From Marsupella aquatica (Eukaryota > Plantae > Marchantiophyta), in the NCBI GenBank assembly GCA_973895155.1, contig OZ316893.1, positions 28,158,210 through 28,222,209 of the forward strand: a DNA stretch of 64,000 bases, read 5' to 3'. The notes beneath the pieces are model-generated. The model was not told where the DNA came from. It was given only the letters and a program-made list of their open reading frames with translations, and searched no databases. Shown piece after piece: positions 7,637 through 58,746 of this stretch. The translations under genes and the position numbers were made by a program. The number at the start of each line of letters is the position of its first letter. Position 1 is the first letter of the stretch.

Positions 7637-7705
7637 CTATCGGAGACACACTTCTCGTTTAGCCCGACTCATGTAGAAGTCATGTCTTTGAGGTCAATCT
7701 TTGCA

Positions 7706-7880
7706 ATTTATCAGAGTCTCAAATAATCCTTAATCCATTAGATGAATGGAGACTCCGATAAATTTATCGGAGTCTCAACTAATCCTCAATCCTTCAAAGG
7801 AATGTCGACTCCGATAAATTTATTGAAGTCTCAAATAATCCTTAATCCGTCAAAGGAATGAAGACTCTGATAAATTTATT
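7706..7880. repeat. 56-bp tandem repeat, ~3 copies, each carrying the GATAAATTTAT core
   Basis: GTCTCAA.TAATCC at 7716, 7772 and 7828. Confidence 0.88.
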
Positions 7881-10975: not shown

Positions 10976-13630
10976 CACTAGAAGAAAACCTGTGTTTTAC
11001 TACTACAGGCCCTGCAACTATTTTGCCTAAACAACTCATACGTGGTGCCAACCACTATTTTTTTAATGGGTTGTAATAATCTGCATTTTATTACTTACTT
11101 AGAACTATGTTACCTTAATCATTGATTACAACTCTTTTTTTGCCACTAAAACTTAGATCACTTGAATTAGAGTTGTATATTACACAAATTTACAAATCAC
11201 TACAATCCACCGTCCACTACACCGTCGATGTTTAACTCTATTTTCAACTAAGATTTTACTACTGGCCGAAACCACTACAAATACACGTACCACGTACCAA
11301 TATTTGAATGGTAAAGGTGTTTTTTCAATCAACTCTCAATCAAGTGAATCTTTTTCAAGTGATCTTAATTACTTGAAATAATGTCATCTGTGAACACACC
11401 TTTTGTTACTATAAATATCACCAATAATGGAGTCACAAATGAATTTTGACAAAATCACTTAAAATATTTTAGTGACAAGTAAATTCTTACAAACAACTTA
11501 AGATTGAGAGAATTAATTGTCAATGTACAAAATTTCTTTAAATAAAGTCATTATTATCACAAATTGTCTGACTACAAATACCACTAATATTAGAGTCCAA
11601 TAAATATTATTTGATGCAACTTCAAACCAAGTGCCACATCCTCCTTAGTCAAAAATCACTCTAAATAATGTCATTCTCTTTGCACATTTTAGTGACTCCA
11701 AATGCCACTAAGAGTAGAGTGTCAATGCAGGACCTTACAAATGACTTGAAATGAAGTAGATCATTTTCCATTCTCAGAAATCACTATGAATAATGTCATT
11801 CTTTAAATACATTTGCCACTACAAATGCCACCAACATTAGAGTGTCAAAACAATTTTGATAAATGATTGAAAATTGAACAGATTATTTTGTGATGTCCAA
11901 AACCTCTCCCAATGATGTCATTATAAACACACATTTTCAGTCACGATATGCATGCCGCTGGAATTACAGCGACAAACAATTTTTTTTTACAAATTGTACC
12001 CAAACCACTACACAACAGGTGCTTTGAGGGTTTTGGGCACCTGTCACTTGAAATACCACCATGTTTTGAGTTGGGAAAGGTATGTGTTTGAACTTCCAAT
12101 CAAGTGCATTGGTAAATACCAGCCCAAACCACTTAACACAAAGTCCTTTCGGGCTCTCATCTTCTTGCAACTACAAACTGCACCCATATTTGAGTGATGC
12201 AGCACACATTGGTGTGACCACTTGCCTTGAACTAGTGCTAAAAGGAGTGAATTGTGTGGATGCATCACATAAGCCCCATATTTGTAATTCCATAGAGTCT
12301 TGGAGTGATTTGTGTGGAGTTCATGATGTTGCATCACTTAGGTGCCTCAAATCTCTCCACCTTGGCAATTTATGCGTCACAACCTCATTGGCGTTGCTAT
12401 AACTAGTTGGCAGACGTGATGGGGGTGTACGATGGCTTCACCATGGGGGGGCTAACACGGAGGAATTGTTATGGCAGTGGGCCTAAGCCTCCTCCTTTAA
12501 TTGTGGCCCTCCGAGAATTGCGGCGAGGTGGATCCAGTTCTCATTATCCATTGTAAGTTTGTCACTCCCCAAATCACTAAAAACCATGTTCTTCAAAGCC
12601 GTCATTTCTAGGAACTAACACTATCACTCAAGCTGGGGTGGTACATCATGCATTCCTTTAAACAACATCTCATGAAGTGCTAGGCGTAGTGTGACCATTG
12701 TTCCCAAACCACTACAAATGAGGTGGTTTTAGGGTTTAGGGAAAATTCCACTTGAAATACCACCTTCATTTGAGTGGAGAAGTAAATTGTGTGTAAACAC
12801 TTGTAATGAAGTGCATTCTTATCCACCAACCCAAATTGCTACAAATGAGGTGCTTTGGAACAATGAAGTGGGTATAGCCACCGAGACAGGAAACAGGAAA
12901 ACAGGAATTCTGGTAGCAGATTTTTTTTGCTGTTATCAAGAATATGTTGCTGTTACCAGGAAAAGTTAGTCATTGGAACAGGATAATACTTCATTACTTC
13001 AAGCCAAATACATCTGAAAAAAAAGCAATATGCATTGCGCTTCATTTACATTCTAGAGCTTAGAACCAACTAACACGGCAACAATTGTTGTCTGATGATA
13101 AGTGAGTCTGGAATCACCAACATACTTCTGGAAAATAGTGTCCCCAAAACCACAGACACACAACCATTAACCAGTGAATGTCACGGGAAAAAACATTGGC
13201 ATGGTAGGTCCCACCATAAGTAACATAATATTATAGGCCAACAATAAGGCTCAAAACCACAAATGAAAACTCCGGACAATTTGAAAGACCACCAACGATG
13301 GGCTAGCGCTTGGCGCTAGCTAAAATGGAAACAACCAACACATTTAGAAAATGACATTGGATGAATGCAGAATGTGGCAAACAAAATTTAAAATATCATT
13401 TGTAGTGATAGGATTACAATGAAATAAATGGTAATAAGGAAGACTTGGAACCATCCCAGCGCCAGGCGCTAACACAAAACTATACCGTTGTAATACGACA
13501 AAAACTAATATAACCGTTTCGAGTATAGGACAAATATATCCTTCTCTATAAACCATAAGCATTCTCCCTTTCCAAGATCAGTCGGACTTCTCCAACTATG
13601 AGAATTGGTTAGTTGGTCAAAGTAGATTCC

Positions 13631-16600
13631 TCAATGTCTAGTTTGAAAACGGTCTGGAAAAACCCAGTACAAATGTTTGCAAGGCATATATGGATGTTTG
13701 CGAGAATGTCGACGATAGAAATCCTCACAAGAACAAGTCGGGAAAATACAAATCTGCACAAAGTAACTATTCGGCGTCCTTAGATTCTCATGTGTTTGTA
13801 CTTTGAATTGCTTCCCCCATGAGTTCCCAATAGAAACATCCCACTGTCCCTGGACGGACATGGTCTCTTTTCTTGCAGATTCAATCCTCTTCATGTGACC
13901 ATGGGTCAAGGTTGATCGAGGAAGTGTGTTATTTCCATTCTGACTCCAAAGACGAACAGTGGGTTCCAGAAGATTGACTCTCTCTGGAAATAAGTTTACA
14001 TTGATTCGAAGCTCAAAAAGTGATGGTGGAGGTAGAAGACCGTCTCTTCCTTGAGCTATAGGTATTCCCTGGTCAACAAGATACTTCATCTCAGCTTCCG
14101 AAACATTTGTTCCTTTTAACACAGGAAGAACATCAAGAAAGGAGGGCAGGTTCACTACACCATGGCGGGGACGGCTCCGATAACATGTGTTGTTTGGGCA
14201 GAACCATATCATTTTGGCTATGGGTTCCCCCCTGAACATGCGTTGTCCTTTGACAACAATTCCTATGACACCGTTTGATGAGGGGAACCCAACTTTCTTC
14301 ACTCTATTTCAACACTCATCTCTCTTTGAACTACCGCCAAATGACGCGTTGCACTGTGGACCGGCCCCAAATCTTGATGTCCGACGCAGATGCCATGAAC
14401 CCTGCATGACTTCTGTTTCAAGAACTGGAGATTGGAGCGATGTCTGCTGAAGTACAGTGGGAGTGCTTTGTGGGTATTGTGTTGAACGTGATTGATGTCG
14501 ACCCTACGGTGTATTGAAATCATCACGTTCTGCATCCCTCGAATCATCACTTCCTGAGAGATTGACAACGGAAATGTCATCAGGTTTTTCTTCCGATACG
14601 GAAGCAAACATTGTGTGGTGCAGATTTTTACGCTTGAGTGATCTGGTATTTGGCGATGTGATAAGGACTTTATCATGCTGGTGGGAGTCTTGTGGCGAGA
14701 CAATCCCAGTTGCAGGTCCTTTCCTCTTGACAGACTTTGTTAGAACATCTCCGTTGAGAGGAACGCTTCTCTCCAAGTCAAACTCAGCTGCATTGGAGAG
14801 GAGCATGTTCATCACATCCTCGAACAGCTTTGGGGAACCTGCCTGGTCAGCTGAACGGAAAGCCAGTTCCCATATTGTAGGACCTCTTCCTCTACTCAAT
14901 CCTTTTCGATATGCGGTATTTGCTGCAACCTGAGATATAGCTCGATTATGATCCATTCCACATGCCTCGAAGAGCCCCACTTTTTTTCATTACCCATGCT
15001 TTTATTCCTGCGTGACAGACTCTGATCCGGTACAGTTAGGAATCCTAGCACCTTCTTCAGCACTTTTGTCCTGGAACGACAAAGCATAAACACTAGTAAG
15101 AGTCCGCAAAACATACTAGCGCCAGGCGCTAGGCAGAATATTTTGACAAAACCATCAATATTATTGTGTAATCACATGTTTATGAAAATAAATAGGTCAA
15201 TATTGAGAATCAATTACATTATTTGGATTCTTTGGATGGAATGTTGAGGAATGTCATCTGAAAAATGTACTTCTACAAAGGAATTTGACTTGCATATTAC
15301 TAGCGCCAGGCAAATAAAATTTCCCCACTGCCTCCAACGCATGACCCACCATGATATCCAACTCTGAAGCATTCGGAGCTTCCCAGGTAAGCAGTTACTC
15401 GACTGCCACCATAGGTCAATCTCTCTTGAAAGTCGGTAAGCCTCTACAAATGTCGGTGCGTTCCGTAATTTATCCCATAGCATTCGATGTTCCGCCTGCT
15501 TCTCTTCCAACACTCCTTCAACAGAATGGCAATGAAAATCTTGGTAAAAATGAAAAGCGTCCGTCCTCTCCCGTTCAGGGTTCGGGTGCCCTCCAAAAAA
15601 AACATTTTGGACTGCTAACCATCCGGCTTGGGCATTGTCTGCCATGAAGCCATGAATGGTTGGATTATCCAACCCATTCTCTTTGGAAACCTCAATCATT
15701 AATCTCCAAGCCTTCTCGAATGACGCTGTGTCCTCAGCTTTTAGCTCGCAAGTAAATATTGTACACAATGCGCGGTAATTGTGATCGTAAACGTGTGCGC
15801 TGAAAGTCACCCAATCCTTGGTCATTCATTTCATGACATTGAAGCTTACCCAGGCACCTTCAAGCATCCCTCCAGGTTGCATTTGCCGCAAAAGATCCAC
15901 CCCAGACCCATGGCCTTTGGAAGTCATCTTAAATATGTGAGGTCTGTCTTCTTGAGATCCTTGACCTGGAAGGATGTACCTCTGTAGAAAAGGCATGTTG
16001 ATATTCTTTTGATACCAAACAAGAAAATCCAACTCTCCAGGCCTTGCTGGTCCTGCCTAACACTCTTGAAAAGAGATGCAAACTTCTGTGGAGTAGAAAC
16101 TACCATTAGAGACTGGAAAATCCCTGTCTCTTCAATATCTTCAATCTCACCCAGGCTCTCATACAAAGACTCTACAAAAGATCCTATCGCTACATTTTTT
16201 AATCTTGGCAGGCGTCCAAGTCGGATTGCCTTCCAATTTCTTTTTTATGACATCTTCAACTACCTTTTCCGCACTCTTGCAGAGCATGCCTCTACACAAA
16301 AAGGGAGCTGCTGGCAATAATGACAAACTCCACCCTGCTCAATGAACGATCCAACACGGTGAGAGCCTCCAAGTTTCGGGGTACCAACCCATGCCTTTGC
16401 ATTCCTCCTCTTCTTTTGGTAGAAGTAGTCACAAGTTTTATTCTTGCACTCAATAAATCCAGTACAAGTGACTTTACCAAATTCCTAGTATTTCTTGGGC
16501 TGCACGTTTGCAGTGGTAGGAAATATTCTAGTCCAGATGTAGCAATCCTTGGTTTGGTCCATGTCCCGTAGACGGGATCCTTTTGAAAGAATTCCCGACA

Positions 16601-17181: not shown

Positions 17182-18199
17182 AGAAGCCTCGAAAGTGAAT
17201 GAGCATAGGAAAATTATGAATCAAAATTCCACCGACGAGGACTGTTATCGATCCTGACTAACAGTTCCCTAAAGCCGTTATAATAAGACAATCCTCTGAC
17301 ACCATAAATGTATTTTGTCGTTATATCAACGTCATTTACGATCAACGTCATTAACAATAAACGCCATTTAGGAAGAACCCTTTTGTTCTAGAAATATCAG
17401 ATGATGAATAGCGCCAGGTGCTATTAAAAACATTGCAAAAGTAGAGGCCCATGCAGAGTCAATTTATGTGCAGCGCCTGGCGCTATTAATAACAATCCAA
17501 AAGGTTACACAACTACATTATCAGGACTTTTTACGTGTTACATGAAGACGTTAAGCCCGACGTCTCCTTGCTGCTAAAGAAAGGCGACATACTCGACGTG
17601 AATGACGACACGTTTTGTACGAAGTAACAAAGGTTACAGTTTACATCGTCCAAAACTACGTTACATACGTCAGTCCATACTACGTTACATATTAACGTCG
17701 TAAATAAAGACGTTATTCTGGACGCAGATTGAACAGGGAAATCAGCTGATAACATCGTTTAAAACGACGTTAATTTCAGATTACGTAGTTTGTGACTTTG
17801 TTAATGATGAGTCTGTCCAGGACGTATGAGTAGTTAGTCGTGTGAGGCTTGGTAAAAATGGTGTTAACGAGAACGTTTGAAAATAGTACCAAGAATGGAG
17901 AGACGTGAATGGAGTGCCGTTTGTGGTAAACATTAATCTTGTATGGAACATCCTTCCAGGCTACCTTAGTTGGGTGGGCTTTAGGTTTAGGTTCATATAC
18001 ACACGGAATACACATAAAATAGACATATGAAGTCCGGAATGCCACTATAAATGGGTGGCGTCAAAAGTTTGTGCCAAAAATGTACAAAATGCAGGTGGAC
18101 GTCCACCTAGTCATGCATGGTATACCCTAATGCCGCTGAGAGCGGCTCCTATCACGTCCAGACCTGCGAACAGAAATACGTGGCGGTGCCTCCGACTGT

Positions 18200-18388
18200 T
18201 TGCCTCGGGGCCGCAACTCGTACCGAAGTGGATCCTCGTCTGAACTACTGCTACCAGACACCAACTCCATAGCTCCCTTGCCTCTACTCCTAGGGACTAC
18301 ATCTCTAGTGCCACTGTGTCCCCTAGTGGTATCCCTCTCGACACGGCTCCTCTTCCTCTCTCTATGTCTCTCCCTCCCCCCCCTCTCT

Positions 18389-18420
<32 letters not shown>

Positions 18421-20332
18421 CGTCGTCTATGGCTGGTATGACCCCTATCAGTCTCCACTGGAGGGGAGAGGTTAGAAGATGACCGGCCCTGTGTACCTAA
18501 ACTGCCCTCTTGCCCACAGTCTACTAAGGCCTCCTCCTGCGTATCAGGCTCCTCCCCTCCATGATCTGCCTCCTCATCTTCCGCAATGGGTCGTGCCACT
18601 AACCCCTCTAGAGGACTCCAATCCTCCTGGATATGACATAAGGGATCAGTTTACCTCCTGCAAATAGTGGATGCAAAACCTAGTATAGAAGGAACCTAAC
18701 CTGACTATGTAACTTACCACTGGGTGGTCCTCCGGGACTGAGTCCAGCTTAGCCCATAGGGCCGCCGGGCCATAGCGTTTTGAATAGAGCCGCTCCTGCT
18801 CACTTGGCTTGGCGTTAGCTCCAAACTTGCGTTTCTGCAGGAAATTGGAGAACGTCGTCACCATCGTCGTTAACTACAATGTACCTAACGACGTTTTATA
18901 ATTAACGTCATCCAAGACAAGGTATATAGTGAAACTTCAATATTAACAATGTAGAAAAGACGTTAATTAAATGTAACGTCGCGAGAGACGACGTTAGGTA
19001 GGATGAACGTAGGGGGTCTAGACGTTAAATTTAGAACTTGCGATGTTAGAGGAGAAAAACGACGTTAATTCAATGTTCTCACCGCAGCGGCCGAAGCATG
19101 AACAAGTTGTGCTTTGAAGAGGGTGGGGGACTTACATAGGTTGCAAGGAAGCCTTGCCATCCTCCCTGGCCCCAGAAATTGGTCACACGCAGGCGGCCAT
19201 TTGATTTGCGGGCTGCAGCAGCTTTGTCCCCCATGTGCACTCGCTTGCCTACTGGGGTGTCAGGTGCTGCTTCCAACTCAGCCACGATCAACTTGAAGTC
19301 GGCGTTGCTCATTCCTTCTGGTTTCAGGTATTGCTCTGTCCTTGGGCATCTCATTTTTCGAACCTTGTTTCTCCATCTAAACCTCTGATCTGCAAGGTAG
19401 CCTACGATCTTTTGTCTGATGTGCCTATAGTCTATTTCACGGCCGTTCCTAAACCCAGCTTGCACATCGTTCAGGAGGAGCTGAAACTTCTTTGGGTTCT
19501 GCGCAAGATCCTTCCAAGTTGTCCAACCAGGACAGTGCTTGGCACAACACGTCTGCACTCGATTTGTGAGGGCCTTCTCATCCAGAACATCCAGCCTAGC
19601 ATCAAACGCATCCAAGGTGATGGTTGGGAGTTTGTCTCGACTCACAGCAGTAGTTACCGGTCGCGCAGGAGAAGGTTGTCGCTTCTTGTGGGAGTGACGT
19701 TCACGCTGAGGTGAGTACCTCTCTCTTCTGTCTGCCCTTGCATCTCCCTCTATTCTTCTTCTTTTGTATGTACCTCTACTGTGTGGATCTGCATCTCTAT
19801 ACTCCTTCCCTTTCCCCTTCCGTCTTCTCTTATCAAGGCTGCTATTGCTGTTGTGTGTTCTATCACGATGCCTCCTCCGCCTGCGAGAGTCCCGATCCTG
19901 ATCAGGCTGGAATCTATCATGTGCTACCCGGACCACACTCTTGATTGGGGTCCCACTAGGTGCCTGAGAATCAGGCTGCATTCCATTGAAGGCAGGATCG
20001 TCCCACCCATCATCTAGTAGGGACGGGAAGGAGTTCAGAGCATCGATCGAAGGCCCCCCATCCTCCCCCAAGAGCGTTGCATTCTCAGTTTCCACATAAT
20101 CATCGAGGGTAGGAGCATTGGCCTCTATATTTTCCAGGTACTCCAGAAACTGAGACTCCTTGCTTCCTTTTCCTCCCAAGAACTTCCAACTCTGGTTGAA
20201 AGCATGTATCAGCGAATGTGTCGATTGCATAGCTTTACGCACCTTTTCTAACTCCCCTGGATCATCCATAGCCACCAAGTCTGCATCAAAATCTCCACTG
20301 GAAGGGAGATAGCCTGGATGAGCCATAGTCAT
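18200..20332 (-). CDS. TnpA/Ptta-like (CACTA ORF2) gene, spliced, divergent from the transposase
   Basis: 417-aa first exon with an Arg-rich region then QKIVGYLADQRFRWRNK...KPEGMSNADFKLIV...AARKSN...NFWGQGGW, resembling the TnpA/Transposase_24 pattern. GTAAG donors at ~19135 and ~18716. 3' end approximate. Confidence 0.55.
18345..18420. repeat. (CT)n-rich microsatellite
   Basis: CTCTCTCT runs. Confidence 0.85.
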
Positions 20333-20746
20333 TCACTGTTAAGATAGGAGGTCGAGAGGGGGAGAGGGGAAGTGTTGATGTTGAATGTGAGTCACATTCA
20401 AGTCACTTCCCGATGTTTTGTTAAAGGAAAACAGCCGTAGCCCACGAACCTTGGAGACCCGCCGTTACCCTAATTTAACGTCATTAATCACAACGTTAAC
20501 TAGGAGTGTAGGGTTTAGCGGCGACGTTACATATAATTACGTCATACCTAACGACGTTAACTTATTAAGTACGTCGTACATTATTACGTAAACTAAATTC
20601 GGCAACCTCCCCACAACCTAAAAAACGACGTTAATTTTAGGGGAACGTCGTGTGGATGGACGTTAGTTTGGTTAACATAGCGGGATACGTTTATGCTTGG
20701 GGTTTAATATGTTGTGGGGGCCTTTGTAAATTTGATCACAGGGGAC

Positions 20747-23700
20747 ATGGCAACCTATGCATCGGACCATGATGGGGGCAGGCATCATCGGCACAGAAAC
20801 CATCATCATCATAGGGGGACGTATGATGAGTCGGATAGGCGAAGGGATGACTCGTGTGACGATGACGATGAGCATGGCGGTAGTTCTCACCGACATAGAC
20901 ACCATCATCGGCATAGGGGGAGTTCAGCTTCATCGGGCTATAGGAGCAATGACAAGCGGCAGAGGAGGAGGGATGACGAGGGAGGGAGGAGGAGGGATGA
21001 CTCATCCTATGAGGACCATGGTGGGGGTACTTACACCTGATGCAGAGATGACCATCATCATAGGGGGAGGGACAACCTGTCGGACCGGGAGAGAGATTAC
21101 TCACCAGACATGTATGATCGATCTAGGCGTCACCGATCCAGGCGTCGTCAACGCAGACATGGTTCCGAGGGTAGGAGAGGCTGGAGCCCCCATCATGCTG
21201 ATGGATTTGGAGAGGCCATGGCTGCTCTTCAGGGGATTGGGCCAATTCGCAAGATGCCTTGCCCTTGCAGACGATGCAAGGGTGTTGTCTTACACGAGAG
21301 GACCACTGTCCTTAGCCATTTAGGGATCCATGGTCGTTACACCCCCCCGACCCGAGAGGTAATACAATTTTGTTGGGTATTGCAATTATGATAACATCTC
21401 CTTCCTTGAATTGTTTTTTGATTGTCATATTCTGAACTTGTTTTGGTGAACATGTGGAACAGATTCCTGTTGTAGTGCGATCTTCGCCTGTGGACCGCTT
21501 GAGAGACATTGCATATCGTGCACTCGCACCACTCGTCCATCCATCCGATTTTCCAGCCACATTGAGGGAGATAGACCGTGTATTTCGGAGGAGGAGGAGA
21601 GTGTTTAGGATGCACCCTATTGAGAGGGGAGTAGTGGTGACCACTAGACCCCGATCGATTGAGTCTCGTCCACCTAGGATTGTTCCGCCCCGATGCCCTT
21701 TTCTTGATGCATCGGTGTCCCGGGCACCGAGACAGTTGCGAGGGAGAGCCTTGGACATCTTAAAGGACTCCTTCCCAGCCCAGTTTGGACTCCCTATGGA
21801 CCTCCCGCTTCGGGAGCCTATTATAGTTTGGGACCGCCCATGGGTCATCCTCCCCTCCACATTGGGGACTCATGTAGGACTTGGAGTATTTGCTCTTGTG
21901 GATATCGTGGTCCCTACCAGTTGTGCACCCGATGATTTGCCTCAGTTGTTTCCATTCTATGGGCCCAAGTATTCGGCGGCAAGATGGCGCATCTTGTCCC
22001 GACAGTGCCCAACCTTTAGTCGATATGGCATGTCACTAAAGTTGGACCCTAGGTATGCTCAGATTGATGGTTACCCACCTCGCACGGGGAACTTGGCGGG
22101 TTACATCAATAGCACTATTGGTTCTCGGCGTTCAGGGTTTAGGCCAAATGCTGAGTGGCACGAGTTCCATGACCAGAGTCACCCTCGTTTGCCTGTAGCA
22201 TGCACGCATTACATCTTGACACATGCTACCCGCACCATTAGAGCAGGGGAAGAGATTCTCGTAGATTATGATTGGCATTGATGTTTACATGTCTACATGA
22301 CATATTCATTATGGGGTGACCCTTGCATTTTTCATTATTGATGTTTCACTGTAAGCTTTATCACGGAAACCCTTTCTCTAATTGTTATTTGTCATTGCAT
22401 ATTGAAAACTCTAGGATGGTGTACATATTACTCCCACACCTCACCCATCAATGATGACTACATCAGCCCGTGCCTTTCACGTACGTGCCACCTTACATTT
22501 CTCAGACGAGGAGGATGCTGAGGGTCAGCCCCTTGACCATGATGAGATGGACGATGAGGATGAGGAGTACCATGATGCATATGATGGAGAGTTGGATGAT
22601 GATGGAGAGTTGGATGATGATGTTGACGATGAGGGAGATGAGGGAGATGAGGGAGATGACCCTATCCTTGAAGAAGATGCCTTTGCCCACCTTGTTGACG
22701 TTCACTTTGGACCTCATGCACCTGACGCCGAGCACCCTATCATGGAAGTGGATCAAGAAGATTGGGATCACTTGGAGACTGAAGCCAGAACACCACTATT
22801 TGAGGGATCTCCATCCTCACGGTAAGGTTGTCCTAAAATTATCACAACTCTGGAATTTCATCCAGTGAATATTGGGCAGTCTAAATTGTAGTGCCAGGCA
22901 TGCCATCTAGCTACTTGGACTAACTGCAAAAAGTCTGGTGTTTGTGGTTTTGCAAATCCAGGTTGGGTGCAACTTTGTTGATGTTGAATTTGCAAGGAGT
23001 TTTCAATGGTTCGGATGTCCATACAGATGCACTCTTCCAATTGTTCCATGGCAAACTCTTGCCCCAACCAAACACTCTCCCTGGATGTGTGAGGGAGGCT
23101 AAGAAGTTGTTAGCCTCAATTGGATTGGCTTTAGAGACTATCCACATGTGCCCAGGTGGGTGCATCTTGTATAGAGGGGTGTACAAGGATCACACTCACT
23201 GCCCAGAGGAGCACTGTAGGCTTCCACGGTATCGACCAGACACCATTGGAGACAAGATTGCAAAAAAGGTAATGTTTTCCTCAACGCAATGTGAGAACAA
23301 GAAAGTCCAACTTTTAACGTTGCATTCTTTCAAACAACGTCGTACATGACTATGTAATTGATTACTTTACGTCGTCCATCTCACTTTATGTCTTTCCACC
23401 TGACGTTTTTTTGTTTTTATGTCGTATGGGATGCAGTAACTAACGTCGCATGGTACATTAGGGTATGAAACGTCGTCCTTTACGATGTTAGTTTTAATAA
23501 TACGTAGTGTGGAAGGACGTTTATTGTGATTGTCGTCAAATTGACGATGTTACATTGGATCTGGCAGGTTTTTCGTTATTTCCCAATCACTCCCCGACTT
23601 CAGCATCTCTACCGACAAAAGCACTTATCCACACTACAGACTTGGCATGTGGAGAACAAATCCCCACCAGGGATAATGCAATACCACCAAGATAGTCCAG

Positions 23701-26408
23701 CGTGGAAGCACATTGATGCCACTTGGCCAAATTTTGCCTAGGAGCCAAGAAATGTTCGTTTGGGGTTGGCAATCGATGGAGTGAACCCATATAAACAACG
23801 ACGGAAGCCTAAGTCCATCTGGCCTGTTCTTTTGATAAATCAAAACATCCCTCCATGGTTGGCAATGAAGAAGGGTCATGTGCTTCTATTAGCTATAATT
23901 CCTGGACCCAAGGCCTGTAAGAATCCTGATATCTGTTTGGCTCCAGCTTATGAAGAGCTACATAATCTATGGGAGGTTGGAGCAGTGACAACAGATGTCA
24001 CTCGTGAACCAGGCAATGGTAGGACCTTCAATATGAGGGTGATGATCACTCATTGCACCACAGATGGTCCAGGTAATTCATTGGGCAACCCAATGACTAT
24101 TGTTTGCACAATGTCATGTACAATGCAAGTGTTGGGGTTATTTGTGGTCTGAACATGGTTCAATGAAATGGCAGGTATGGGAACAATATCTGGCCTGAAG
24201 GTGGCAAGTTTTTCAGCTTGCCCTTCATGTGGCCCAGAGTTGCGTGGGAGGTACTCAAGACTACTGCACAAAACCACATATGAGGGCAGTAGGGTCCGGT
24301 TGGCAATGGATGACCACTTGCGACAAAACACAACACATTGGGCAGAGACTGAAGTGCGGCCATGTCCTAATGGCCCTTCAGCTGAAGGACAAATTCAAAT
24401 GGCAGAGAAGGTGGAAGCAAAGTTACTAAAACCCAAGGATTGTGGAGTAAACCGACGCTCAGCTATGTGGGACTTGCCTTATTGGAGGGTAAGTGATAGA
24501 AGTGCATGGTTCCTTTACAGCAAATTAGACCAATAAAATTCTTAATTTAGAGATTGCAACTGATTCAATATGTTATTTCAATTTCTAGAGACTCCAGGTT
24601 CGATGGTTGTTGGACCCCATGCACATTGAAGTGAATGTTGCTAAGAACTTGGTGAAGCACATTTATGGGACGAATGACACTCGTGGAGTCCGAGAGGATG
24701 CTGAGAGGGTTGGAGTAGTGAAGAGTTGTTGGATAACACGTACTGGGGAGAAACCTCCTGGTCCTTGGATTTTGCCAAGAGAGGTTTTGAAGGACATGAA
24801 TGGGATGATAAGCGAGATGAAGTTCCCTAGCCATTACGGAGCTGGTTTTCGTGGGTGCACTACAAGGAATGATCACATACCCCCAATAGGGTTGAAGTCT
24901 CATGATTATCACAAGTTGATACAGCATGTGCTACCAGCAGTCTTGCGTTGTTGTGATGATTCCCGGGAGCGTCGTTTACTCCGTCTGACTATATATGAGA
25001 TGTGCTCCATTTTTAGGTATGCTAACGTACCCTCTCTTCCATTGCTCTCTTGCAAGTTCTTGTTACCGCTGAAGGAGCCATGTAATTCAACAAGTATTTC
25101 AAACTCATTTTTCTATGGCCCTATGTGGATCTGATATACAAAATCTTTGATGGTTTTGAGGAGGAACATAGGTGGGTATGCGCTAAGGAGATAAAGGAGT
25201 CTGAGATTCCTTTGATGAGAGAGAGGTCAGCTCGCGTGATGTGCAATATGGAGAAGGTGTTTCCCCCATGCATATTTGACATGCAATTGCATTTACTATG
25301 TCACTTGGTGGATGAGGTCGCGATTGCTGGTCCTGTCCATGCACGTTGGATGTATTGGGTAGAGCGCTTCATGAAAGTGCTCAAGTCCATGGTGCGTCAA
25401 CCAGCTCGACCAGAGGGAAGTATGGCAACGGGGTATATCATGTCGGAGTGCCTCTTTTATTCCGGAGGGATGATAGGAAGTTTGGACACAGAAGCTCCCA
25501 CAGCTTGGGAAGAGGCACAAGATGATGACAATGGTGGGTTGCGTTTGATGGGTGCATCAAAAAAGCGTTCACTACATGACAACATACTTCGCCTACAGAT
25601 CCACAATTATGTGTTGGGAAATCGCCCAGAGATGTCTCAGTGGAGGGAGTTGCATAGGTACATATATGCAACTCTATATAACTGTTAATCTAACAGTAGA
25701 CGTTGTTCTACATTCTATGTGTGTAGAAGTTAGAGTGGGTTCAAGGAGCACTTCTTTGGATTGTGCAATATTCTCATGGATTCATACATTTTTTGCAGTG
25801 CATTCTTGGAGCAGCAACCAATAGTTGCACAACGGTATGCATTATTTCGCGTATGGGCATTGGAGCGCATGGATAGGCTCCTTGCAGAGCATGGACCCTT
25901 ATCCATTCCCATTGATGTACAGAACATCATTAGGGGACCAGGGTTGTGGGCAACGACCCATACACACATGTATGAGTCAGGGCACCACTTTCGCACTTGG
26001 AGGACAGATCACATGAAGAAGAGTACATGTAACTCAGGAGTGTTCATGTTGACAGACCCAGGTGATGTTGAGATTCCCTATTGTGGCACTATATTGGATA
26101 TTTTAGACGTTCACTTTGGGTCATTTACTACTATTGTGTTAGAGGTGCGGTGGCACAAATCCATCATGTCACCTCCACATAGAGCCACCATGGTGAAAGA
26201 TGAGTGTGGGTTCTATCGGGTAGACACGACTCGTGTAGCACCATCCGGGACTGAGGTTAGTGACACTATAGTATTTCCTAGCCAGGTGGATCAGTGTATT
26301 ATGGTTCTGATGCACACTATGAGAGGATGGTCCATCGTCATTCCCATCTTCCCACGATGGAGGAAGGGTTTGATGGCATCAGTAATTGTAGATGATATGG
26401 ATCCATGA
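20747..26408 (+). pseudogene. CACTA transposase (TnpD-like: transposase-associated Zn domain, Transposase_21, DUF4218-like regions), 8 predicted exons
   Basis: Exons ~20747-21358, 22415-22821, 22962-23268, 23568-24072, 24175-24488, 24589-25016, 25172-25657 and 25799-26408 with GT-AG junctions. Motifs CPCRRC..HL, IHMCPGGCILY, EPRNVRLGLAIDGVNP, LDPMHIEVNV, GLKSHDYH, GPVHARWMYWVER. Premature TGA at 21038 and TAG at 23739. Confidence 0.9.
21463..22281 (+). CDS. SET-domain (lysine methyltransferase-like) exon inside transposase intron 1
   Basis: GLGVFA (motif I), FYG, IDG...GNLAGYINS, PNAE, ATRTIRAGEEILVDY (motif IV). Frame is intact. Acceptor AG at 21461-21462 is phase 0. Confidence 0.8.
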   Translation: MPVVVRSSPVDRLRDIAYRALAPLVHPSDFPATLREIDRVFRRRRRVFRMHPIERGVVVTTRPRSIESRPPRIVPPRCPFLDASVSRAPRQLRGRALDILKDSFPAQFGLPMDLPLREPIIVWDRPWVILPSTLGTHVGLGVFALVDIVVPTSCAPDDLPQLFPFYGPKYSAARWRILSRQCPTFSRYGMSLKLDPRYAQIDGYPPRTGNLAGYINSTIGSRRSGFRPNAEWHEFHDQSHPRLPVACTHYILTHATRTIRAGEEILVDYDWH

Positions 26409-26923
26409 CCATAAATGTATTCAGTGCATGTATATATTCGTTATGGCCACCTTCATGTGGGTTTGTAGCATCTGTGGGTAACGTCGTTGTATGACTATTA
26501 CGTCCGGTAGACCAATGTATCTTCAAACTACGTCGTATCAGGCAGACGTTAATTCCAATTAACGTCGTTTTATTGAGCCTTCAACGATGTTAATTTAGCC
26601 ACGACCCCGTTTACGTTACTCCACACGACGTTGATTCTCCACTTAAAATGATGTTAAACTAACTTACGTTGTTTTAGGGTACGTATTAAACCAAAGACGT
26701 CGTGTATTGCAACGTTACTATATCCGCGCGACGTTAATGACAGTGGTGACATTAATTGGCACATGCATTCAAAATGAAAAACATGAGGGAGTCTTTATTC
26801 AGTTTCAGTATGATATAGAGATACAAAGGTCCTACAAAGCACATTGCATGTCCACCACAAAGCGACTATAACCTAGCCGAATCACTAAACTGCCTCATCC
26901 ATTGACATCCAGATTGTTGCTAC

Positions 26924-27484
26924 TTAAGGAGTTCCTTCACCAGACCAGTAGTACTCCTCATCTGCCTTCCTTCTTTTGTAAGAATCACGCCTCTGCCTCT
27001 GGTTCCATTTCTTGCGGACGACCTCTTCCCCAGCCTTTAGCCTTTCAGCCTCAACCTCAGCTGCACAACTTTCCTTGTAATCATACAAGACAATGTGAAG
27101 CTCAGTCGGAGACAGCTCACATTTGGGCAATGTAGGTGGATATGCCTCCCCATCATCTGGGTTGGGCGCCTCATCCAACATCTGATCATCACCTGGATGC
27201 AGCAGGAAGTCTCCTGGATCCAACTGTTTGTTGGCCAGAATTGAGCACTCTACCCAACGGATAGAAATGAAATGAACTGTCTCTGCAAAGTGCTCGATCA
27301 ATCCATGGTAGTCACTGAAGTGCTCAACAACTTCTTTCCACGTATAGGCCAGCAAGTAGTCTGTTTCCGAGGTACACAACTTCTCAATAACACCTCCCCG
27401 ACAAAAGAACCCACGTATAGTCTTGTCCTCTTCACCAAGTGGAAGGAAGCAACAATGCACATCTTTGAAGAACTTGCGCACCAT
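26924..27484 (-). CDS. BRCT-domain-like protein, 186 aa, convergent with the transposase
   Basis: FFKDVHCCF...RGGVI...TDYLLA...HFISIRWVECSI...LDPGDFLL follows the BRCT pattern (GG, WxxxS). Intact ORF with a charged C-terminus. Confidence 0.7.
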   Translation of the reverse strand: MVRKFFKDVHCCFLPLGEEDKTIRGFFCRGGVIEKLCTSETDYLLAYTWKEVVEHFSDYHGLIEHFAETVHFISIRWVECSILANKQLDPGDFLLHPGDDQMLDEAPNPDDGEAYPPTLPKCELSPTELHIVLYDYKESCAAEVEAERLKAGEEVVRKKWNQRQRRDSYKRRKADEEYYWSGEGTP

Positions 27485-30400
27485 GACTGAACACTGAGTC
27501 TAGATCCCACGCTGCAATTTCTCTGTACTCAGGAAGAGTGCATTCTCCAAAAATCACAAATGCAAGCCTACTTTGGTCTCAGCACTCTTAAACCAAAATC
27601 CTCCCGTAGAAAACCCAAGCTATACTCGAGTCAGCATGGACTACTCCTCATTCAAGTCGTCCACACCGATGTACTCAACGTCTAACATGGCTTGATTCAA
27701 TCGGAACGTCCTACAGAGCAACGTTACCACTTTTACGTCTCCCTCCACGACGTAAACATTGACGTCGTTATACCCTAAACACATTACATCCTCTAATACG
27801 TCGTTAATATTGAACGACGACCAAAACGACGTTTAGGACAGCTCATCCAGAGACGTTAATTTTAAACGTGTTTCCAGCGACGTTAAAATGGGGGCAATCG
27901 GCGCTTAGATTTCTCCGACATCGCCGTTACGTCGGACGTAGTTATAAACGTAGTCATGGAAGTCGTTAATTATATTAACGACGATTATGAGGAGGTATTG
28001 TTTGCATCCGATGCAACAAAATCTAGTTGTGTTAGGGTCCATCTAACGTCAATTTATGTGTAGCACCAGGCGCTAATAAAAGCAAATGACATAAAACGAA
28101 TTCCTAAAGGAGACATTGGATGATTAGCGCCAGGCGCTAATATTGATATCATTTCATATTACGAACGTATACAATGGTAAAAACTAGAAGTAGGAGCCTT
28201 CAAAAGGCTGAAAAAGCTTTGTTTTTTGCTAGCGCTGGGCGCTAGTTTTCTTTTGTATCAGAAATATGAGAAAACCGGATTTTTGGGAAAGTAATGGCGT
28301 ATTAACGCCTCTTATGGCTCTATATTGAATTCCCAACTGACATAAAAATTGAAGATTTTAGGCCTTGGAAATTACTAGCGCCGGACGCTACTATTTGGTG
28401 AGTAAATTAAAATGAATTTGATATATTCTCAGGTTTTCCTTTCAACGGTCATATTCAACGGTAACTATAGGTTGCGTGACCCTCAATACATCAATCCCCT
28501 TTGGTGTTGTCGAATAAGATAACAACATGTGTCACAGATCCAGGCCAGTGGTTCAATTTCCTTAGCATATATGTCATGCTTTTTGCTCTAGATTCTTTTT
28601 ATTTCCCATGTTAAGTACAGTACGATCAAAGTTGTTTGACGGGTTTTTGCCGTTCGTGGTACGGAAAGAGCGCGGTGGTCGTCAGTGCTTTCTTCGCCCT
28701 TGTGCGAGCAATGGACCCTATCTTATCCTCCTCTCAATGCTTTAGTGGAAACAGACACAGAGAGGTCGTTCCCTCGCAAACATCTGAGTGCTCATTTTCA
28801 GGATCTTTGTATAGTCGTCGAGTGACTTGATCCACTGCTTTGCGAGCTCCTAAAGCACAACCCGCTGTATCATTCCCGAATAGCAAGAGAGGGAAGATGG
28901 ATGATTCTGATTTGTTTGCTGTGGAGGACTTCGGAGAGACGTCGCTGACTGTTTACGATGTGATCTCCAAACACATTATGTCATTTGGAAAAGATTTTCG
29001 AGGACATGACAAGGATCCGCCAAGGATTCCAATGTGCCGATTACTTCATATGGAAGTAGTGCGAACATTACAGAAGGGAAGTCCTTCGATAGTGAAGCTG
29101 AAAGACTCCTTTTAGAGCATAGGATACAATTCTAAGATCAACATGCTTTTTTATGTCCAACCAACAGATTCCAATGGAGAAGTCCAGATCTGCATGCCAG
29201 AGATTCGTGCTTCCTAGGATGCAATTTGGGTCGCAGAGAACAAAAAGTTTGAGGCGAAATGTGCTGCCAACCCTGACTTCTCTGTCTAGCAGGATAAGAT
29301 GTTTTATGTGTTTGATGGAAACCATCGACTCTACGCATGGTCCATCATCACGAAGGAGAATCCAGATGATGTGAAATACCATCCTCGCGTCCAGTGCACA
29401 ATATTCAAGGGAGAAAGGGGTCCTTGATCGAGATTGAGGCGGCGATGCACACTATTAACCAATAAGTGTCTCTTCCAATATATTTCTATTCTAATCTATG
29501 ATCACTGTGTTTCACTAGCGTCGGGCGCTACTGACTCCCTCTCTTGTTTTCAGGCTTGGGCAAGCAGTGGTCAAACCCTCTTGGATACTTGACGCAGACC
29601 GTATCAACCAAATTCTCTCGAATGAACTCGATTACTACAAGTCTATCATTGATGCTGCAAACTTCAAGAAGTTTGGGCAGATCATGCAGAAAACACGGAA
29701 GGGATTGTGGAATACAAAAAAATGCCTCAAGAAGCGCTTCTGTACATCTTGTGTGAGAATAAGATCAAGTCTTATTCTTGACAGTTTAAGATGGATTTGG
29801 AACATGATGCCGCTCAGGGTACACCTTGGTCTCCCGGAGAGATTTCAAAAAGACATGCAATGATGATGAAGGAGGCAACAAAGGATTGGGCGATAAAGGT
29901 GTCAAAAATCACTCCTCTATTAAGCCCCGCTTTTGAGGATTTAATGCGGACATGTGCTGAGATGTACCCCCTCACAGAGAAGAATAAGAGAGAGAAGAAG
30001 CCGGATGCAGTTGTCTATACAATGGATCGAGCAAGATTGTTTACTGCTGTCTCTGCCCTTGACCCCAAGCTGAGGAGTACCCTTCTGGTTGCCCATTATA
30101 CACCGGAGCTGAGGAAACAATTCTTCCATCCACAGAGCGTTAATGACGATCCAGTGAAGCAATGGTGCCATACTTGGCAAACTTGGAACACTGTGGAGGG
30201 AATTGCTATTGGTTTGCTGCAAACCTCCCTACGCCAGGTCAGTGATATAGTCCCCGCCAATCGGTTGCAGGAGTGGGAGTGTGAGTCGATTGAATCACTT
30301 ATTGAAATAGTCTCAAATAACTTCAAGAAATTCAGGGACGCTGTGAAAGGCAAGTTTTTTAATACAATGTGGCCTTCCAAGTATCCCGACAAGGCTGACT

Positions 30401-33400
30401 ACACCCTCAAGAATCAGAAGAGGGCCAAACAATACCTGTACCGTTTCTTCATGCACATGGAGATTGTGAAGCCAGATTACTTTTGGGCATACCCTGCTGC
30501 TTTCCAAAAGTGGATCGTTGTTCCTGAAGGAGACATACTGGCCAACGTGTATTCAATGTATCCCGTTGAAGGGTGTCTTCCACCAAGAAAACTGTCAGAA
30601 TGGGAGAGAATTCATTGTCCTTGGTATTTGGACACCGATAGATGGGACTCTCCATTCGGAGACACTGAGAAAGACGCATTTCATAAGCTTTCAAAGTCTC
30701 AGGTCCCTCCCAAGTTTGTGTCCGACATGAAGCAGGGAATTGAAGGTGATGTGAGCAAGTCGGCGGCAGAATTACAAACGGTGTGCGAAACTACGGTTGT
30801 TCATGTTGACCGAAGTCGCAAACCTAGAGCCAAAGCAAAAACCGAAGCTGTGGCACCGAGTACATCAATGCGGTCCGCCAAAAAACGTAAGTTGTCATTC
30901 AGCTTGTAGCTTCACATTTTGGTTAGGGCCAGGCGCTGCTATATGACTATGTCTATTGGTTTGTTTTTTCAATTGGTTTGGACAGCGCCTGGCGCTATTA
31001 TTCAGCATTGAATAAATTTTGCTCTTTTTCCTTTAGGTGGGAGAAAGTCTGACGTTGCAACCGACGAAACAAAAGTAGATGCGACTCCGGAGCCTTCTGA
31101 AGCCAATACCGGTGCCCGTCAGACCCAGTAACTCCAATTGACAAAGCGAAAGAGATTGTCCCTCTTGATGCAACCAGTACAAAGAAGAAGAAGAAAAGGG
31201 CAATTCAAGCTAGAGAATCTTCCCGAGATGATGCCACTGGAACTGGTGTTCAGAGAGATGTGGGAACCTTCAAGAGCAAATCTTCTAGGCATTGCATGGT
31301 GGAAACAAGTATCCAAGAATTTATTGATACTGCTTTCAACAAAGCAGCGAAACCAGATTGGGTGACTGATGCAGAGAAATGGGGAAAGGACTTAATCAAG
31401 TCGGGTTCCCGAGAAAGGGAGTAATCAAAGGAGGAAAAGAAAGATTGTGACGCCACCGGTACGGCGGTTAATGAGTGATTCGGTCTAACTGTGCTTAGCA
31501 CACGCGTTAGGAGTGTCTTAGGCCGCTATTATTAGCATAACGATAGTATTTAGGTAATCATTATGGGTAGGACATCATTAGGCAATAAGGGGGAATTCAG
31601 GTTCGGATTGGCGGCGGGTCGCTATTCGCACACCCAGGTTACGAGCGTGGAGGGGCCCCTCCCTCAGGTCCGTATAACAAACTTAAGGAAGCGGCCACTG
31701 ACACGTGCTGACTCAGACCGGCGAAGTGGCCGGTACACCACAAGCGTGAGCGGTTCAGCCTATGGGCGTCGAGAAGACGTCGGGGGATCGACAAGCCCTC
31801 AAGGTATAAAAGGGCAGCCAACCCTTTGTAGTGCACCAGTCCATCAGTCCACGCGCCAACCCCAGCTCTCTCGTTTGCTCTAAGTTGCCACTACTATCTC
31901 CTCTGAATGTCGCACACGATCCTCTCCAGCTCGGCCATTCGATTCTGGACGCAATTCCTATCTACCGGAAGGCACTTGGCCGACTCATTGAAACACGCCA
32001 ACCCGCGCCGATACAAAATCGAACGCAAGTACGAGAGAGCCATCCGCCTAGCAGGACGACACCACTACATCCTTAACTTTGACTACCCGTCTCAGAGCGA
32101 GCTTTACCGACCAGCAGAGGTATCTGGGTACTTCTTCAACGCAGACAAATATATCGGTTTGTGGGAAGCATTGCTTCGGTTTCCGGACGAGGTCTTCAAT
32201 ATCCCGGGTACGATTGACTTGCAACGACATCACTTTGACCACATCCCTGCTCAGGTTCGGGCTATCATCAACAGCAAGTCTAGCACTACCCGTTCGACAA
32301 GGTCGTCTGCACTTGCTTTGGAGAACTTCTACCAGCATCTACAGAGCTTCATGGGAACTCGGCCATCAACCAACATGACCAACTCAGTCGAACCCGTACC
32401 TGTACCCATACCCGTACCCATACCCATGCAACCTCAGGCTCAACCTCAGGCTCAGCTTCAGCTTCAGCCTCAGCCGCAGCCTAGCCAAACCCCACCACCG
32501 ATCGCCCAGCCAGCACAAGTACACTCCGTCATCAACGCTGTGGATCTTAGCGATGACGACGAGGCTACCCCACCCTTGACCAGGCGGCCCAGAGGAACAA
32601 GCGCTTAGGGGGCCGACACTATATCGTCCCCACCCCCTGCTCTGACCCCAGGAGCGGCCCCGACAGACAACATGGTGACCGTGGCCGACCCGGGCCCGTT
32701 ACTAACGGCAGTGGCATTACCCAGGCCCGATCGGGAGGATGGGGAGGTGTCACCTTCCCCGAGCCAGTCACGGGGAAAGAAGAGGAAGGAATCCACCACT
32801 GCATCCGGGTTACCTTTGGTCATGGTAGCCGTAGCCAAGGTGACGATGCACCACATGGGGGAAAACGTTCACAAAAACATCCTCCATCCCAAGCATGTGG
32901 TGTACCTGAAGACTCAGGGATTCAAGCACCTCGCCTCCCTCCCCTGGAACACTTGCAGGTACTATGGGGAGGACATGACGGAGTTCATCAGGAATTATGA
33001 CGACGCGCGTCAACATACTCGGTTGCGGGGAAGGAGTATGTCCCTCATGGAAGAACGGCTCAGGATGATCTTTGGGTTACCCAAAGGTGACCATCGAGTC
33101 GAATCACGGGCTCCCGGGGGCAAGGGAGCCAAGTACCAATCTTCAAGTTTTCCCTCAGAGGGAGCAGTGGACAACGGGTTCGTGATGAGGACCTGTCTCA
33201 TCCCCGAGATAGCTGAGCGACTGGAGTTCCAGAGGTACGCCCTCCACATGATGGAACCCCGGGGAGAGATCTCCGCCGCCCAGGTTATCCAGGTCGAGAA
33301 CTATCGACCTAGGAGGTGGGCGTCGTACTTCGCTAAGAAATTCCATGAAGAGATGGAGCGGCGAAGGAAGACGCTGTACATTGGCGGGAAGGCGTATTTC

Positions 33401-33716: not shown

Positions 33717-36700
33717 TGTGGTGCGTCCCATGGCTCCCTAAATCCAAGAAACCCCCCAGCTCAAGCCGATTCCTGCAGGTTTCGTGCTTGGCGAGGCCGT
33801 TTCCGCGGCTTAGCGGCATGGGACGCTGCTAACTTTCTACTACTACTATTAACATTTTACACACATATACTGGACAGATCCTTCATCGGGTCATGAGATA
33901 CGTAGCCGGCCTAATATAGGCCTTCCCCTGTCTTCCCCTGTCTTCCCCTCCGTCTTGTTAGGTATGTTTGGATTCCGCCGCCGGAATGATCCCCAATAGG
34001 CTTGGTTAAGCCGCTAAGACCTCTCTCAGCTCGACACATCCAACTCTCACTCCCCTGCTTACTTTCCTTCCTTCTGTTGATGTGGGCACTCTTCACACAA
34101 GTTAATGCGACACACAAATAGCAAAATGACTCATTCTGACTGAGTCATACCATGCACTTGCCATACAAACAGTACATCTCATACACAAGTTCTGCGAACT
34201 AAGCCGTGAGGCCAACTCTATTCAGCTCTTAGGCATGAGGAAACATGAATATACACAAGGGTCACTGTATGACTAACCGAGAGCTTCTCGTACTACTTGA
34301 TCCCAGCCCGGCTGGTGCAAACTAAAAACTTGCTAAAGAAGAGGCCCTGAGCTCCCCGCTGCCCAGGTACTTATCCTGGTAGTGGATCCGCCATTCTTTG
34401 CATCGTAAGCCTAATCTACTTAACAGTAATCTACTTGCCCGAATCTACCTATGTACAGCAAGGCAGGAGCACAAGTGTTGCTCCTACCAGTGGGACCGCA
34501 ATCCCACTAAGCTAAGTGTCAGGGCCGCTCCTGGTTCTGATCCTAATCCTAAACGTGGAGATCCGCGCCCGCCCTGCCCACTCACGCCTCCTCCCTCCAC
34601 GTCCGCCCTCCCTAAAAGGAACGGCGCCCTTGCACCGTCACGACACCGGTGGTGGATCCTCAATGGACGCCCCCAACACTTCCTCCTCAGCCACTGCCGT
34701 TGGCCCGCCTACTGACAGATTACCTGCCCTTGACCGAGTCAACTCTCCATCGGCCTGACTGGGTCCACCTTCGGCTTCAGCCTCGACACCGGCCTCGGCA
34801 ATACCCACGGCTTCGGCCTCAGCCACTCCCACGGCTTCGGCTTCAGCCACTCCCACGGCTTCGGCTTCAGCCACTCCCACGGCTTCGGCTTCAGCCACCC
34901 CCACGGCTTCGGCCTCCCCTTCCCCTAGGGTAGTTGGATCCTTAGCCGTGACCCTGTCTGGGGTCGGTGCTGGGTCTACCTCCTTGATCACCACGGCCTG
35001 TGAAGTCGTATTACTCCTTGACCCTGGAGGTTTCCGCTTCTTCTTCGTTGGTGGCTCGGCAGCTGGTCCCTTCCCCTTCCCACTTACTTCCGGCACTGGT
35101 GCAGTTGACGCGGCTTGTCCTTCGGCAATTACCACCCCTGGTAACTGGTTTGTCCCAACGGGAGATGGACCTGCTACAGCTAAGCATTTAAATACTGCGG
35201 CTTGTTTCTTCAGCCGCTCTGTTTGGTTGTCGGCCCGCCGCTGTAGGTTCTCCATCTTCCTCGTGATTTCCTCCAACTCCTCTTGGGTTTCATCCAGGTC
35301 CTTACGTGCCCCCTCCAGCTCGTTTTTGGCCTCCTCCTGCTCCCTGTGGGCTTCCTCCAATTCCTTCTTCAAGGTAGCCCTCTCCTCCTGGGTTGCTCTT
35401 AGCTCCTTGTCGAGCTCTGCAATGATGACAGACTCCATCTGGTTCATCTTGGCGTAAGTCTGTTCGAGCATTTCGTCCTTCTCCCTTAGGTCGGCCTTGA
35501 AGCTGGCCGTCAGGGACGCAAGCTCCTGCTGCAGCGCCATAATCCCTTGATAGGATTTCCCTAACTCGACCTCCTTCTGCTCAAGGGCTCCGCGGATTTT
35601 CTCGAGCTCCCCTTTCAACGCCCATTCCTTTCTTTGGGTCTCCGCCATGGCCCGGCTGTTGGCTGTTATGTGGGCCTCCTTTGTATTCTTCAGCTCTTGC
35701 TTCCACTTCTCCCTCTCTTTGATCGTGTCGGCCAACTCTTCCTGCGTCTGAGTCAGTTTATCCTTGATATTCTGATTATCAGCCTGCGCGGCGTCCAACT
35801 GCCCCTGCATGATGTTCAGCTCATGTCGTTTAATCCGCAGTTCATCTTGGGCTTTCTTGGCCGCCCTTAGATCTTCAATCTCGGCTCCCATCCTCCTAAG
35901 CCATCGAATGACCTCGTCCTTCTTGCTTCTCTCTAAAGCCACCGCTTCTTCTAATTGGTGCTTCTCCAACTGCTCCCTATGGAAAAAGGGTCCTACCTCC
36001 AACTCCTCTCCAAAGATGCCGAGCGCAAGTTCCCCACACATCTCACCATACTCCATGGCTCTATTCTTAGCGTAGGTGGAGTAAGTAGAAGTGATCGGCA
36101 TCGCCCATCGTGGCCTCTGCTCCCAAGCCGTCCTGCGGATCTCTTCAATCGTGGCTAGAGGTTTGCTTCCTTTTTCGGCTAGCCGCCTGATGTCCTCCGG
36201 CCAATCTCCTCCTGGTAAATCCTTTTCCTTAGCCAGGGCGGCCTCTTCCTCCTGCTTGATTCGCTCCTGAAATTCCTGCACCGTCTGTTTTATGCCGTCG
36301 AAGCTCGGGGGAGCAACATCTGGTGGGGGAGACTCAGGGCTACTCTGCTGGTTGGGGTCCCCTCGCACTACCCTTGGAAGTGTGGGGACAAACCGGCCAC
36401 AGGTCCTTACTCCTGGAACGTGATGGTCCGACCCATAGCCGGAATTATCATGGCTGCAGTCCTCCACTGCCTCCTCTACCTCTTGGATGTCCGGCTTCTC
36501 CCTCTCCTCTTCATCGGTAGGAGCTTCAGGCAATTCTGCCTCAGATTCGGAGCTTGAGGTTCCCACGTACATTCGAACACCTGGCTTGGATTCCGGCCTG
36601 ATTCTCTCCTTGTCTCCAGCAAAGGGGTTTTCTCTTGTGAGCCGGTGTAGGCCTACTTCTGTAGTAGTGTCCTGCATTGTTGCCGTTGCCGTTGTTGTTG

Positions 36701-53822: not shown

Positions 53823-53844
53823 AATTCCACTTGGGACAGGTTGC

Positions 53845-58740: not shown

Positions 58741-58746
58741 TCTTTT

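Follow-up and report, generated by a model that had tools for sequence, protein, structure and literature searches.

A transposon of the En/Spm (CACTA) type in the liverwort Marsupella aquatica carries an exon encoding a SET domain within intron 1 of the gene for its transposase, and the family it represents is likely to splice one shared first exon either to this SET exon or past it. The element lies in a window of 64,000 nucleotides, the whole stretch of DNA that was analysed, and all coordinates refer to this window. Splicing to the SET exon would give a 476-aa protein combining a putative zinc module with the SET domain, while splicing past it would give a 1,222-aa transposase. Both isoforms are probably made from the shared exon, and one promoter that would serve two proteins is the best reading of the structure and its conservation.

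The CACTA element and its surroundings

The element occupies positions 17508..28031 (10,524 bp, unstranded) and bears CACAACTA, a terminus of the CACAA type, at both ends, flanked by a 3-bp TTA target-site duplication (17505-17507 and 28032-28034). The joint expected of an empty site (17504^28032, with three ambiguous letters) was found in three of the four public runs (X1, X3, X4), and run X2 holds variants near it. The CAC..GTG termini are of the form accepted for EnSpm in the available text of PMC12730594; whereas plant CACTA elements have T as the fourth terminal base, this element has A, and because its ends read CACAA it is overlooked by a strict scan for CACTA/G ends. Repeated subterminal motifs are present as well, with 15-20 motif matches per 250 nt near both ends. 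The CACTA identity proposed in the initial annotation is thereby borne out by the termini, the TTA duplication, the subterminal motifs and the Transposase_21 and DUF4218 domains described below.

The element is nested in another multi-copy element with AGCGCCAGGCGCT-type repeats (17300-17507 and 28032-31000), whose plus-strand ORFs at 29519-29863 and 29782-30909 have no Pfam match. Elsewhere in the window, broken MULE-like transposase pieces lie on the minus strand at 13634-15825 (weak SWIM match, E 0.4), and a 1,243-aa coiled-coil-rich ORF (34641-38369, minus strand) sits between LTR-like repeats of nested retroelements, the repeat pairs being at about 1-750 / 39426-40167 and at 33717-34670 / 43755-44691. 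Gypsy-like gag-pol remnants lie in 45838-63999, with long ORFs at 54597-56780. Arrays of the CGATAAATTTATCG palindrome, accompanied by repeats of 56 and 295 nt, occupy 4700-8100 and 11800-13420, together with CACTACAAATG-type repeats that may be the ends of other DNA transposons.

Exon structure of the transposase gene

The shared exon 1 (20747..21358, plus strand) begins with an ATG at 20747, is 612 nt long and encodes a low-complexity N-terminus rich in R, H and D followed by a Cys/His module. It ends, as previously annotated, at a phase-0 donor (GAG|GTAATA at 21358/21359), which the reading frame confirms. The module, a putative zinc module of the form CxCxxC...H...GRY (21260..21340, plus strand), corresponds to the N-terminal half of the Transpos_assoc model. 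Its CPCRRC..HL motif had been called transposase-associated; the motif itself is present, and the match to Pfam Transpos_assoc lies below the cut-off (21.4 bits against 27.7, E 2.9e-4). The same module occurs in database proteins and in L001, which alone proved to be a relative among 60 pattern-matching metagenome stretches and is the sole other locus read as DNA.

A short intron (21359..21462, plus strand; 104 nt, GC 0.32, T 0.43) separates exon 1 from the SET-domain exon, and its first and only AG, at 21461-62, is the acceptor. The SET exon (21463..22281, plus strand) consists of 272 codons plus a stop, lies inside the 1,056-nt intron 1 of the transposase, and reads without interruption from this AG to the TGA at 22279-81. 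It is followed by an AT-rich spacer (22282..22414, plus strand), which contains a possible extra donor at 22351 and ends in the second acceptor, the AG at 22413-14 that opens the acidic linker of transposase exon 2 (22415..22821, plus strand), an exon with a homologue in L001. The acceptors leading to 21463 and 22415 are both in phase 0 with the donor at 21358, so that the two in-frame acceptors and the intact SET frame ending at 22281 reported earlier are both recovered by reading the frame.

When the SET exon is skipped, an 8-exon gene of 1,222 codons results, with all seven introns GT-AG, one frame throughout and two internal stops. Exons 3-8 span 22962..26408 on the plus strand (exons 3, 4 and 5 at 22962-23268, 23568-24072 and 24175-24488; exons 6, 7 and 8 at 24589-25016, 25172-25657 and 25799-26408). 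The product matches Pfam Transposase_21 (104.8 bits) and DUF4218 (105.3 bits) and contains the motifs LAIDG at 509, HCTTDG at 604, CPSC at 626, HLLCHLVDE at 898 and WVER at about 920. Transposase_21, DUF4218, C(2)C and H(3-4)H, the marks of a TnpD-type DDE transposase, are all present. A second CACTA transposase fragment lies at 42708-43934 of the window, where a Cys/His module is continuous with an acidic linker in one frame and no SET exon lies between them, and it is likely to be a SET-less comparator.

The first of the internal stops is a TGA in exon 1 (21038..21040, plus strand), where sister copies read CGA. Position 21038 is C in contigs of all four public runs, at 91-100% of depth (220/240.7, 373.9/373.9, 2295/2295 and 2045/2045), and the family is therefore open at this position. 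The other is an in-frame TAG at 23739-23741 in the transposase frame; position 23739 has no row among the 40 of 1,643 differences listed for the public-run contigs. With both stops in place, neither isoform of the window copy is open from the ATG, and this copy of the family is dead. The initial annotation, which described both frames as open, was right from each acceptor into its exon and missed the TGA at 21038 and the TAG at 23739.

Seven runs, none recorded as RNA, yielded no GT..AG joint among the 15 of 70 and the 15 of 18 joints listed; X6 and X7, which hold small shares, are among the runs that gave none. The search for long relatives of transposase exon 3 returned a single 195-aa fragment, and a natural protein joining exon 1 to exon 2 was consequently not found.

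The SET domain

The frame at 21463-22281 has a SET fold, as had been claimed. It matches Pfam PF00856 with 24.9 bits, above the cut-off of 22.4, and its first match in the Atlas is SET (0.92). Foldseek returned 273 matches at E<=1e-3 for the structure model, which is of modest quality (pLDDT 60.8); the matches listed are all SET proteins, among them LegAS4, MLL1/3/4, SETD8, ASH1L, NSD1, EZH2 and SET7/9, with a best E of 3e-7. Since identity to these varied proteins is 15-22%, the substrate is not readable from the fold. Sequence searches of the PDB gave no significant match, the single protein yielding none at E<=10 and the profile a best E of 0.78.

Residue columns were scored over 143 aligned relatives, leaving out P0154, an unrelated row of the NHS type. 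The GxG of the SAM loop is kept (G139 in 100/110, G141 in 106/111), as are the SET-I tyrosine (Y188, 94/102) and the catalytic tyrosine of the last motif (Y269, 85/87). In the NH(S) motif the asparagine is retained (N216, 102/112) and the histidine is replaced by serine (S217, 105/111). Position 165, the tyrosine of EYxG, is Tyr in 61 and Phe in 45 of 108 relatives, with Phe in the clade of the window, and the post-SET region is absent. The earlier reading of this site as YINS instead of the canonical NHS thus stands, and decay does not account for it, the serine being a family-wide trait (105/111).

According to the available text of PMC5094779, the asparagine makes hydrogen bonds to SAM in SET7/9 and MLL3, and the histidine points outward. 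Because the histidine points outward in SET7/9, its loss speaks more against the domain being a canonical member than against its working like one. The same source describes MLL5, in which a well-conserved SET domain can be catalytically inactive. Methyltransferase activity of the SET domain is plausible from the residues retained.

The frame has no conserved start. Methionines occur only at residues 50, 112 and 190, and a conserved helical block at residues 9-42 precedes the first of them. The position of the end, in contrast to the start, is kept: of the 78 proteins scored, 67 stop no more than 20 aa past the last motif.

Conservation of the layout in relatives

In L001 the elements follow in the same order, namely a Cys/His exon, a donor at 705, an acceptor at 850, the SET frame with its stop, an acceptor at 1882 and the acidic exon. 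The donor and both acceptors are in phase 0; an AG at 46 nt from the donor precedes the first acceptor and is out of phase, and the SET frame contains an internal stop. The SET sequences of L001 and the window are 51% identical over 211 codons, with identities of 0.60/0.68/0.38 at the three codon positions and 17/55 fourfold sites in agreement. The corresponding dN of 0.49 and dS of 2.29 give a dN/dS of about 0.2, which supports purifying selection on the SET exon; the check proposed in the initial annotation thus came out against neutral decay.

Both acceptors are conserved as well, the other point on which the earlier proposal depended. Besides the in-phase acceptors of L001, diverged subfamilies from runs X2 and X5 (about 84% identical) align over exon 1 and then lose similarity, keep an island of 25-27 nt around acceptor 1 (21450-21476), and resume similarity past the SET stop at the TAG of acceptor 2 (22412), with one loose end holding the donor in register. 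The joint sides are 25-31 letters long in these subfamilies, a range flagged as weak.

A profile search yielded 130 cluster representatives of the SET family at the 50% clustering level. Named plants among the 23 representatives checked are Riccia, Calypogeia and, with one distant protein, Ginkgo, and many of the others come from metagenomes or Logan. No relative was found in viral_contigs (0/18 stretches) or genome_contigs (0/13). All three of the longer protein matches are Riccia sorocarpa models with SET directly 5' of CACTA transposase sequence; the pipeline behind the Riccia models mixes transcript and ab initio evidence, according to the available text of PMC11735767.

The Cys/His module stands upstream of SET in 5 of 147 database proteins, namely P0049 and four Riccia models, and the spacers from module to SET measure 124-240 aa in these fused proteins against 128 in the window model. 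P0049, from a Logan contig of 2,141 nt, combines module and SET in a single 423-aa protein. Two other Logan proteins (P0023, P0034) read through presumed intron sequence, so genes in Logan appear to be called without splicing. P0049 would then represent one uninterrupted frame, and its contig would be either spliced RNA or an intronless DNA copy.

In a tree of the 65 rows covering the SET core, the window falls in a starred clade of eight rows together with proteins of Calypogeia fissa. The deep forks of the tree allow more than one order, and no donor family was identified among these rows. Distant SET members with other N-termini (P0075/P0164, P0102/P0178 and P0127, from Calypogeia fissa and Ginkgo biloba) are possibly host, domesticated or other-transposon versions of the domain.

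Motif patches and accessory genes

Six non-coding patches of ACGTCG/ACGTTAA-type motifs (no strand assigned) are distributed along the element, four of them internal. Patch 1 (17500..18000) is at the left end, patch 2 (18750..19100) in non-coding sequence of the minus-strand gene on the left, patch 3 (20450..20750) between the divergent gene starts just 5' of exon 1, patch 4 (23250..23500) inside intron 3 of the transposase, patch 5 (26480..26750) past the transposase stop and patch 6 (27500..28000) at the right end. Peak bins contain 15-21 motif matches per 250 nt, compared with an average of 0.65 and never more than 5 outside the element, and ACGTTAA has 17 occurrences in the element and none in the other 53 kb. 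The six peak bins have an observed/expected CpG ratio of 1.6-2.3; for coding bins the ratio is mostly 0.1-0.8. In L001, too, the DNA preceding exon 1 contains a similar CpG-rich run.

Two accessory ORFs accompany the transposase gene. A divergent one of 417 aa (19079..20332, minus strand) probably continues by splicing towards about 18127; it has no Pfam match, no fold match and a best Atlas score of 0.80. Its product is a candidate DNA-binding factor that could bind the motif patches. A TnpA-like identity (tandem HTH), suggested by visual inspection of motifs, received no support from Pfam, Atlas and fold searches. The second ORF (26924..27499, minus strand) encodes 191 aa and has no Pfam match.

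Proposed mechanism and alternative explanations

Beyond the two isoforms, the SET isoform would bind SAM and methylate a lysine; we lean towards its being an active lysine methyltransferase, in view of the active-site residues it shares with its relatives. Its recruitment to the CpG-rich patches of the element would depend on the exon-1 module, the transposase or the divergent accessory protein, and a chromatin mark set there would keep the element expressible, filling the role of TnpA in flowering plants. That the isoform acts on the chromatin of its own element is speculative, and we put it forward tentatively. In its most complete form the proposal describes a bryophyte CACTA splice switch between a transposase and a motif-guided histone methyltransferase that sets a protective mark on its own element, an enzymatic form of anti-silencing old enough to occur across liverwort classes and standing in for TnpA, and in this form it is doubtful.

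Several other explanations were weighed against the same evidence. The two isoforms might exist while the SET domain acts away from the element or on something other than histones, with the transposase or a silencing protein of the host as its substrate; alternatively, it might be catalytically dead and tune transposition by binding lysine or as a decoy. The His-to-Ser and Tyr-to-Phe replacements and the missing post-SET region fit such a role, the fold matches, at 15-22% identity, favour no particular host SET subfamily, and MLL5 provides a precedent (available text of PMC5094779); however, the SAM-site glycines, the asparagine and the final tyrosine, which MLL5 lost, are kept in 91-98% of aligned relatives, and we regard this explanation as rather unlikely. 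It is improbable that the SET exon is instead a cassette or part of a fusion, joined to exon 2 from a donor at 22351 or at 22261 (a Val codon), so that the RNA would be bicistronic or prone to decay, or the protein a fusion of the SETMAR kind. The GTAAGC donor at 22351 lies only 64 nt from acceptor 2, L001 has candidate donors too, neither spacer (window or L001) contains an AATAAA-type signal, and the Riccia models P0018, P0019, P0058, P0079 and P0088 do join SET to transposase sequence. Against this, the stop right past the last motif is conserved (67/78), the fusions in P0058 and P0163 are without the catalytic tyrosine, which a cut at 22261 would remove likewise, and a cassette that keeps the stop would still yield the same two proteins.

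There is also a small chance that the SET frame forms a gene of its own, nested in the intron and with a separate start, its phase match being inherited chance. In L001 and the clade around it an ATG stands directly 3' of the acceptor, and a Met inside P0003 coincides with the first conserved helix; yet the window has Leu at the site of the L001 ATG and no Met until residue 50, just 104 nt separate the exon-1 donor from the SET frame, the acceptor island is conserved, and fused module and SET proteins exist. Neutral decay of a captured host-gene fragment, in the style of a Pack-CACTA, is hardly credible. Stops in exon 1 of the window and in the SET frame of L001 would suit it, and P0127, the distant relative from Ginkgo, could hint at an origin in a host family, but the dN/dS of about 0.2, the 130 relatives at the 50% clustering level, the conserved active-site residues and the same position in distant families all speak against it. 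On dN/dS and residue conservation, neutral capture appears largely refuted.

Comparison with known systems

To our knowledge, the anti-silencing factors of plant transposons shown so far (VANC and TnpA) are DNA binders, TnpA acting via host demethylases. If the shared exon 1 is indeed spliced to the SET exon or past it, a single gene would link transposition with the marking of chromatin by a SET enzyme that the element itself encodes, and this would hint at what replaces TnpA for CACTAs in plants that have none. The system is testable, consisting of two junctions, one small enzyme and one motif. The analysis also defines a plant SET subfamily that is large and divergent and whose members mostly bear the label of hypothetical proteins at present.

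In En/Spm a single unit yields TnpA and TnpD through alternative splicing, and reports of TnpA-like proteins are confined to flowering plants, as far as the available text of the two sources goes (PMC13547354; bioRxiv 10.64898/2026.08.24.746577). The text of the latter that was available mentions neither a SET domain nor bryophytes. The window element resembles maize En/Spm and Arabidopsis EN/SPM3/7 as these are described there, belonging to the same superfamily, with a transposase and an accessory regulator predicted from one unit and with clustered family-specific motifs. Unlike TnpA, which is described as a tandem-HTH DNA binder that recruits host demethylases, its alternative exon has the fold of a SET enzyme. 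Unlike the TnpA and TnpD arrangement outlined in these sources, its SET exon lies inside intron 1 of the transposase and the predicted products share a coding zinc-module exon; moreover, its motif patches are internal as well as terminal.

SET cargo in transposons is already known. The accessory gene PAG2 of red-algal Plavaka elements, in the EnSpm superfamily, contains a SET domain, and SET domains have been captured by Helitrons (available text of bioRxiv 10.1101/2025.02.11.637652) and are carried by HarbingerS and oomycete MuDR elements (available text of PMC12730594). The likeness to PAG2 is that an EnSpm-superfamily element carries SET; by its description, PAG2 is a separate gene with a DNA methylase domain and SET in a three-gene cassette, and its description in the available text of bioRxiv 10.1101/2025.02.11.637652 includes no shared exon. 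HarbingerS, MuDR and Helitrons likewise bear SET histone-methyltransferase genes, in other superfamilies and hosts and as separate genes according to the available descriptions. The literature on CACTA/EnSpm and SET in plants or bryophytes, PMC11982613 included, describes no SET exon in a CACTA transposase intron in the text available, and Repbase Reports, subscription journals or preprint supplements may hold one. The initial annotation knew of nothing like this for CACTAs, which is too broad given SET in Plavaka PAG2; the shared-exon layout itself was not found in the literature searched.

VANDAL elements offer a likeness of another kind, since the targets of VANC are dense short family-specific motifs in introns, intergenic and terminal non-coding regions (available text of PMC5735166). 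The window element also has dense motifs in its internal non-coding regions. VANDAL elements are MULEs in which VANC, as described in that text, is a separate gene with binding shown, whereas the window element is a CACTA, not a MULE, with the divergent ORF product as a candidate binder. No VANC family occurs among the Pfam-scanned ORFs of the element. SETMAR (Metnase), finally, is a domesticated host gene whose product unites SET and a mariner transposase in a single chain. As in SETMAR, SET is linked here to transposase sequence; unlike SETMAR, the SET exon of the window lies in mobile DNA and ends in its own stop.
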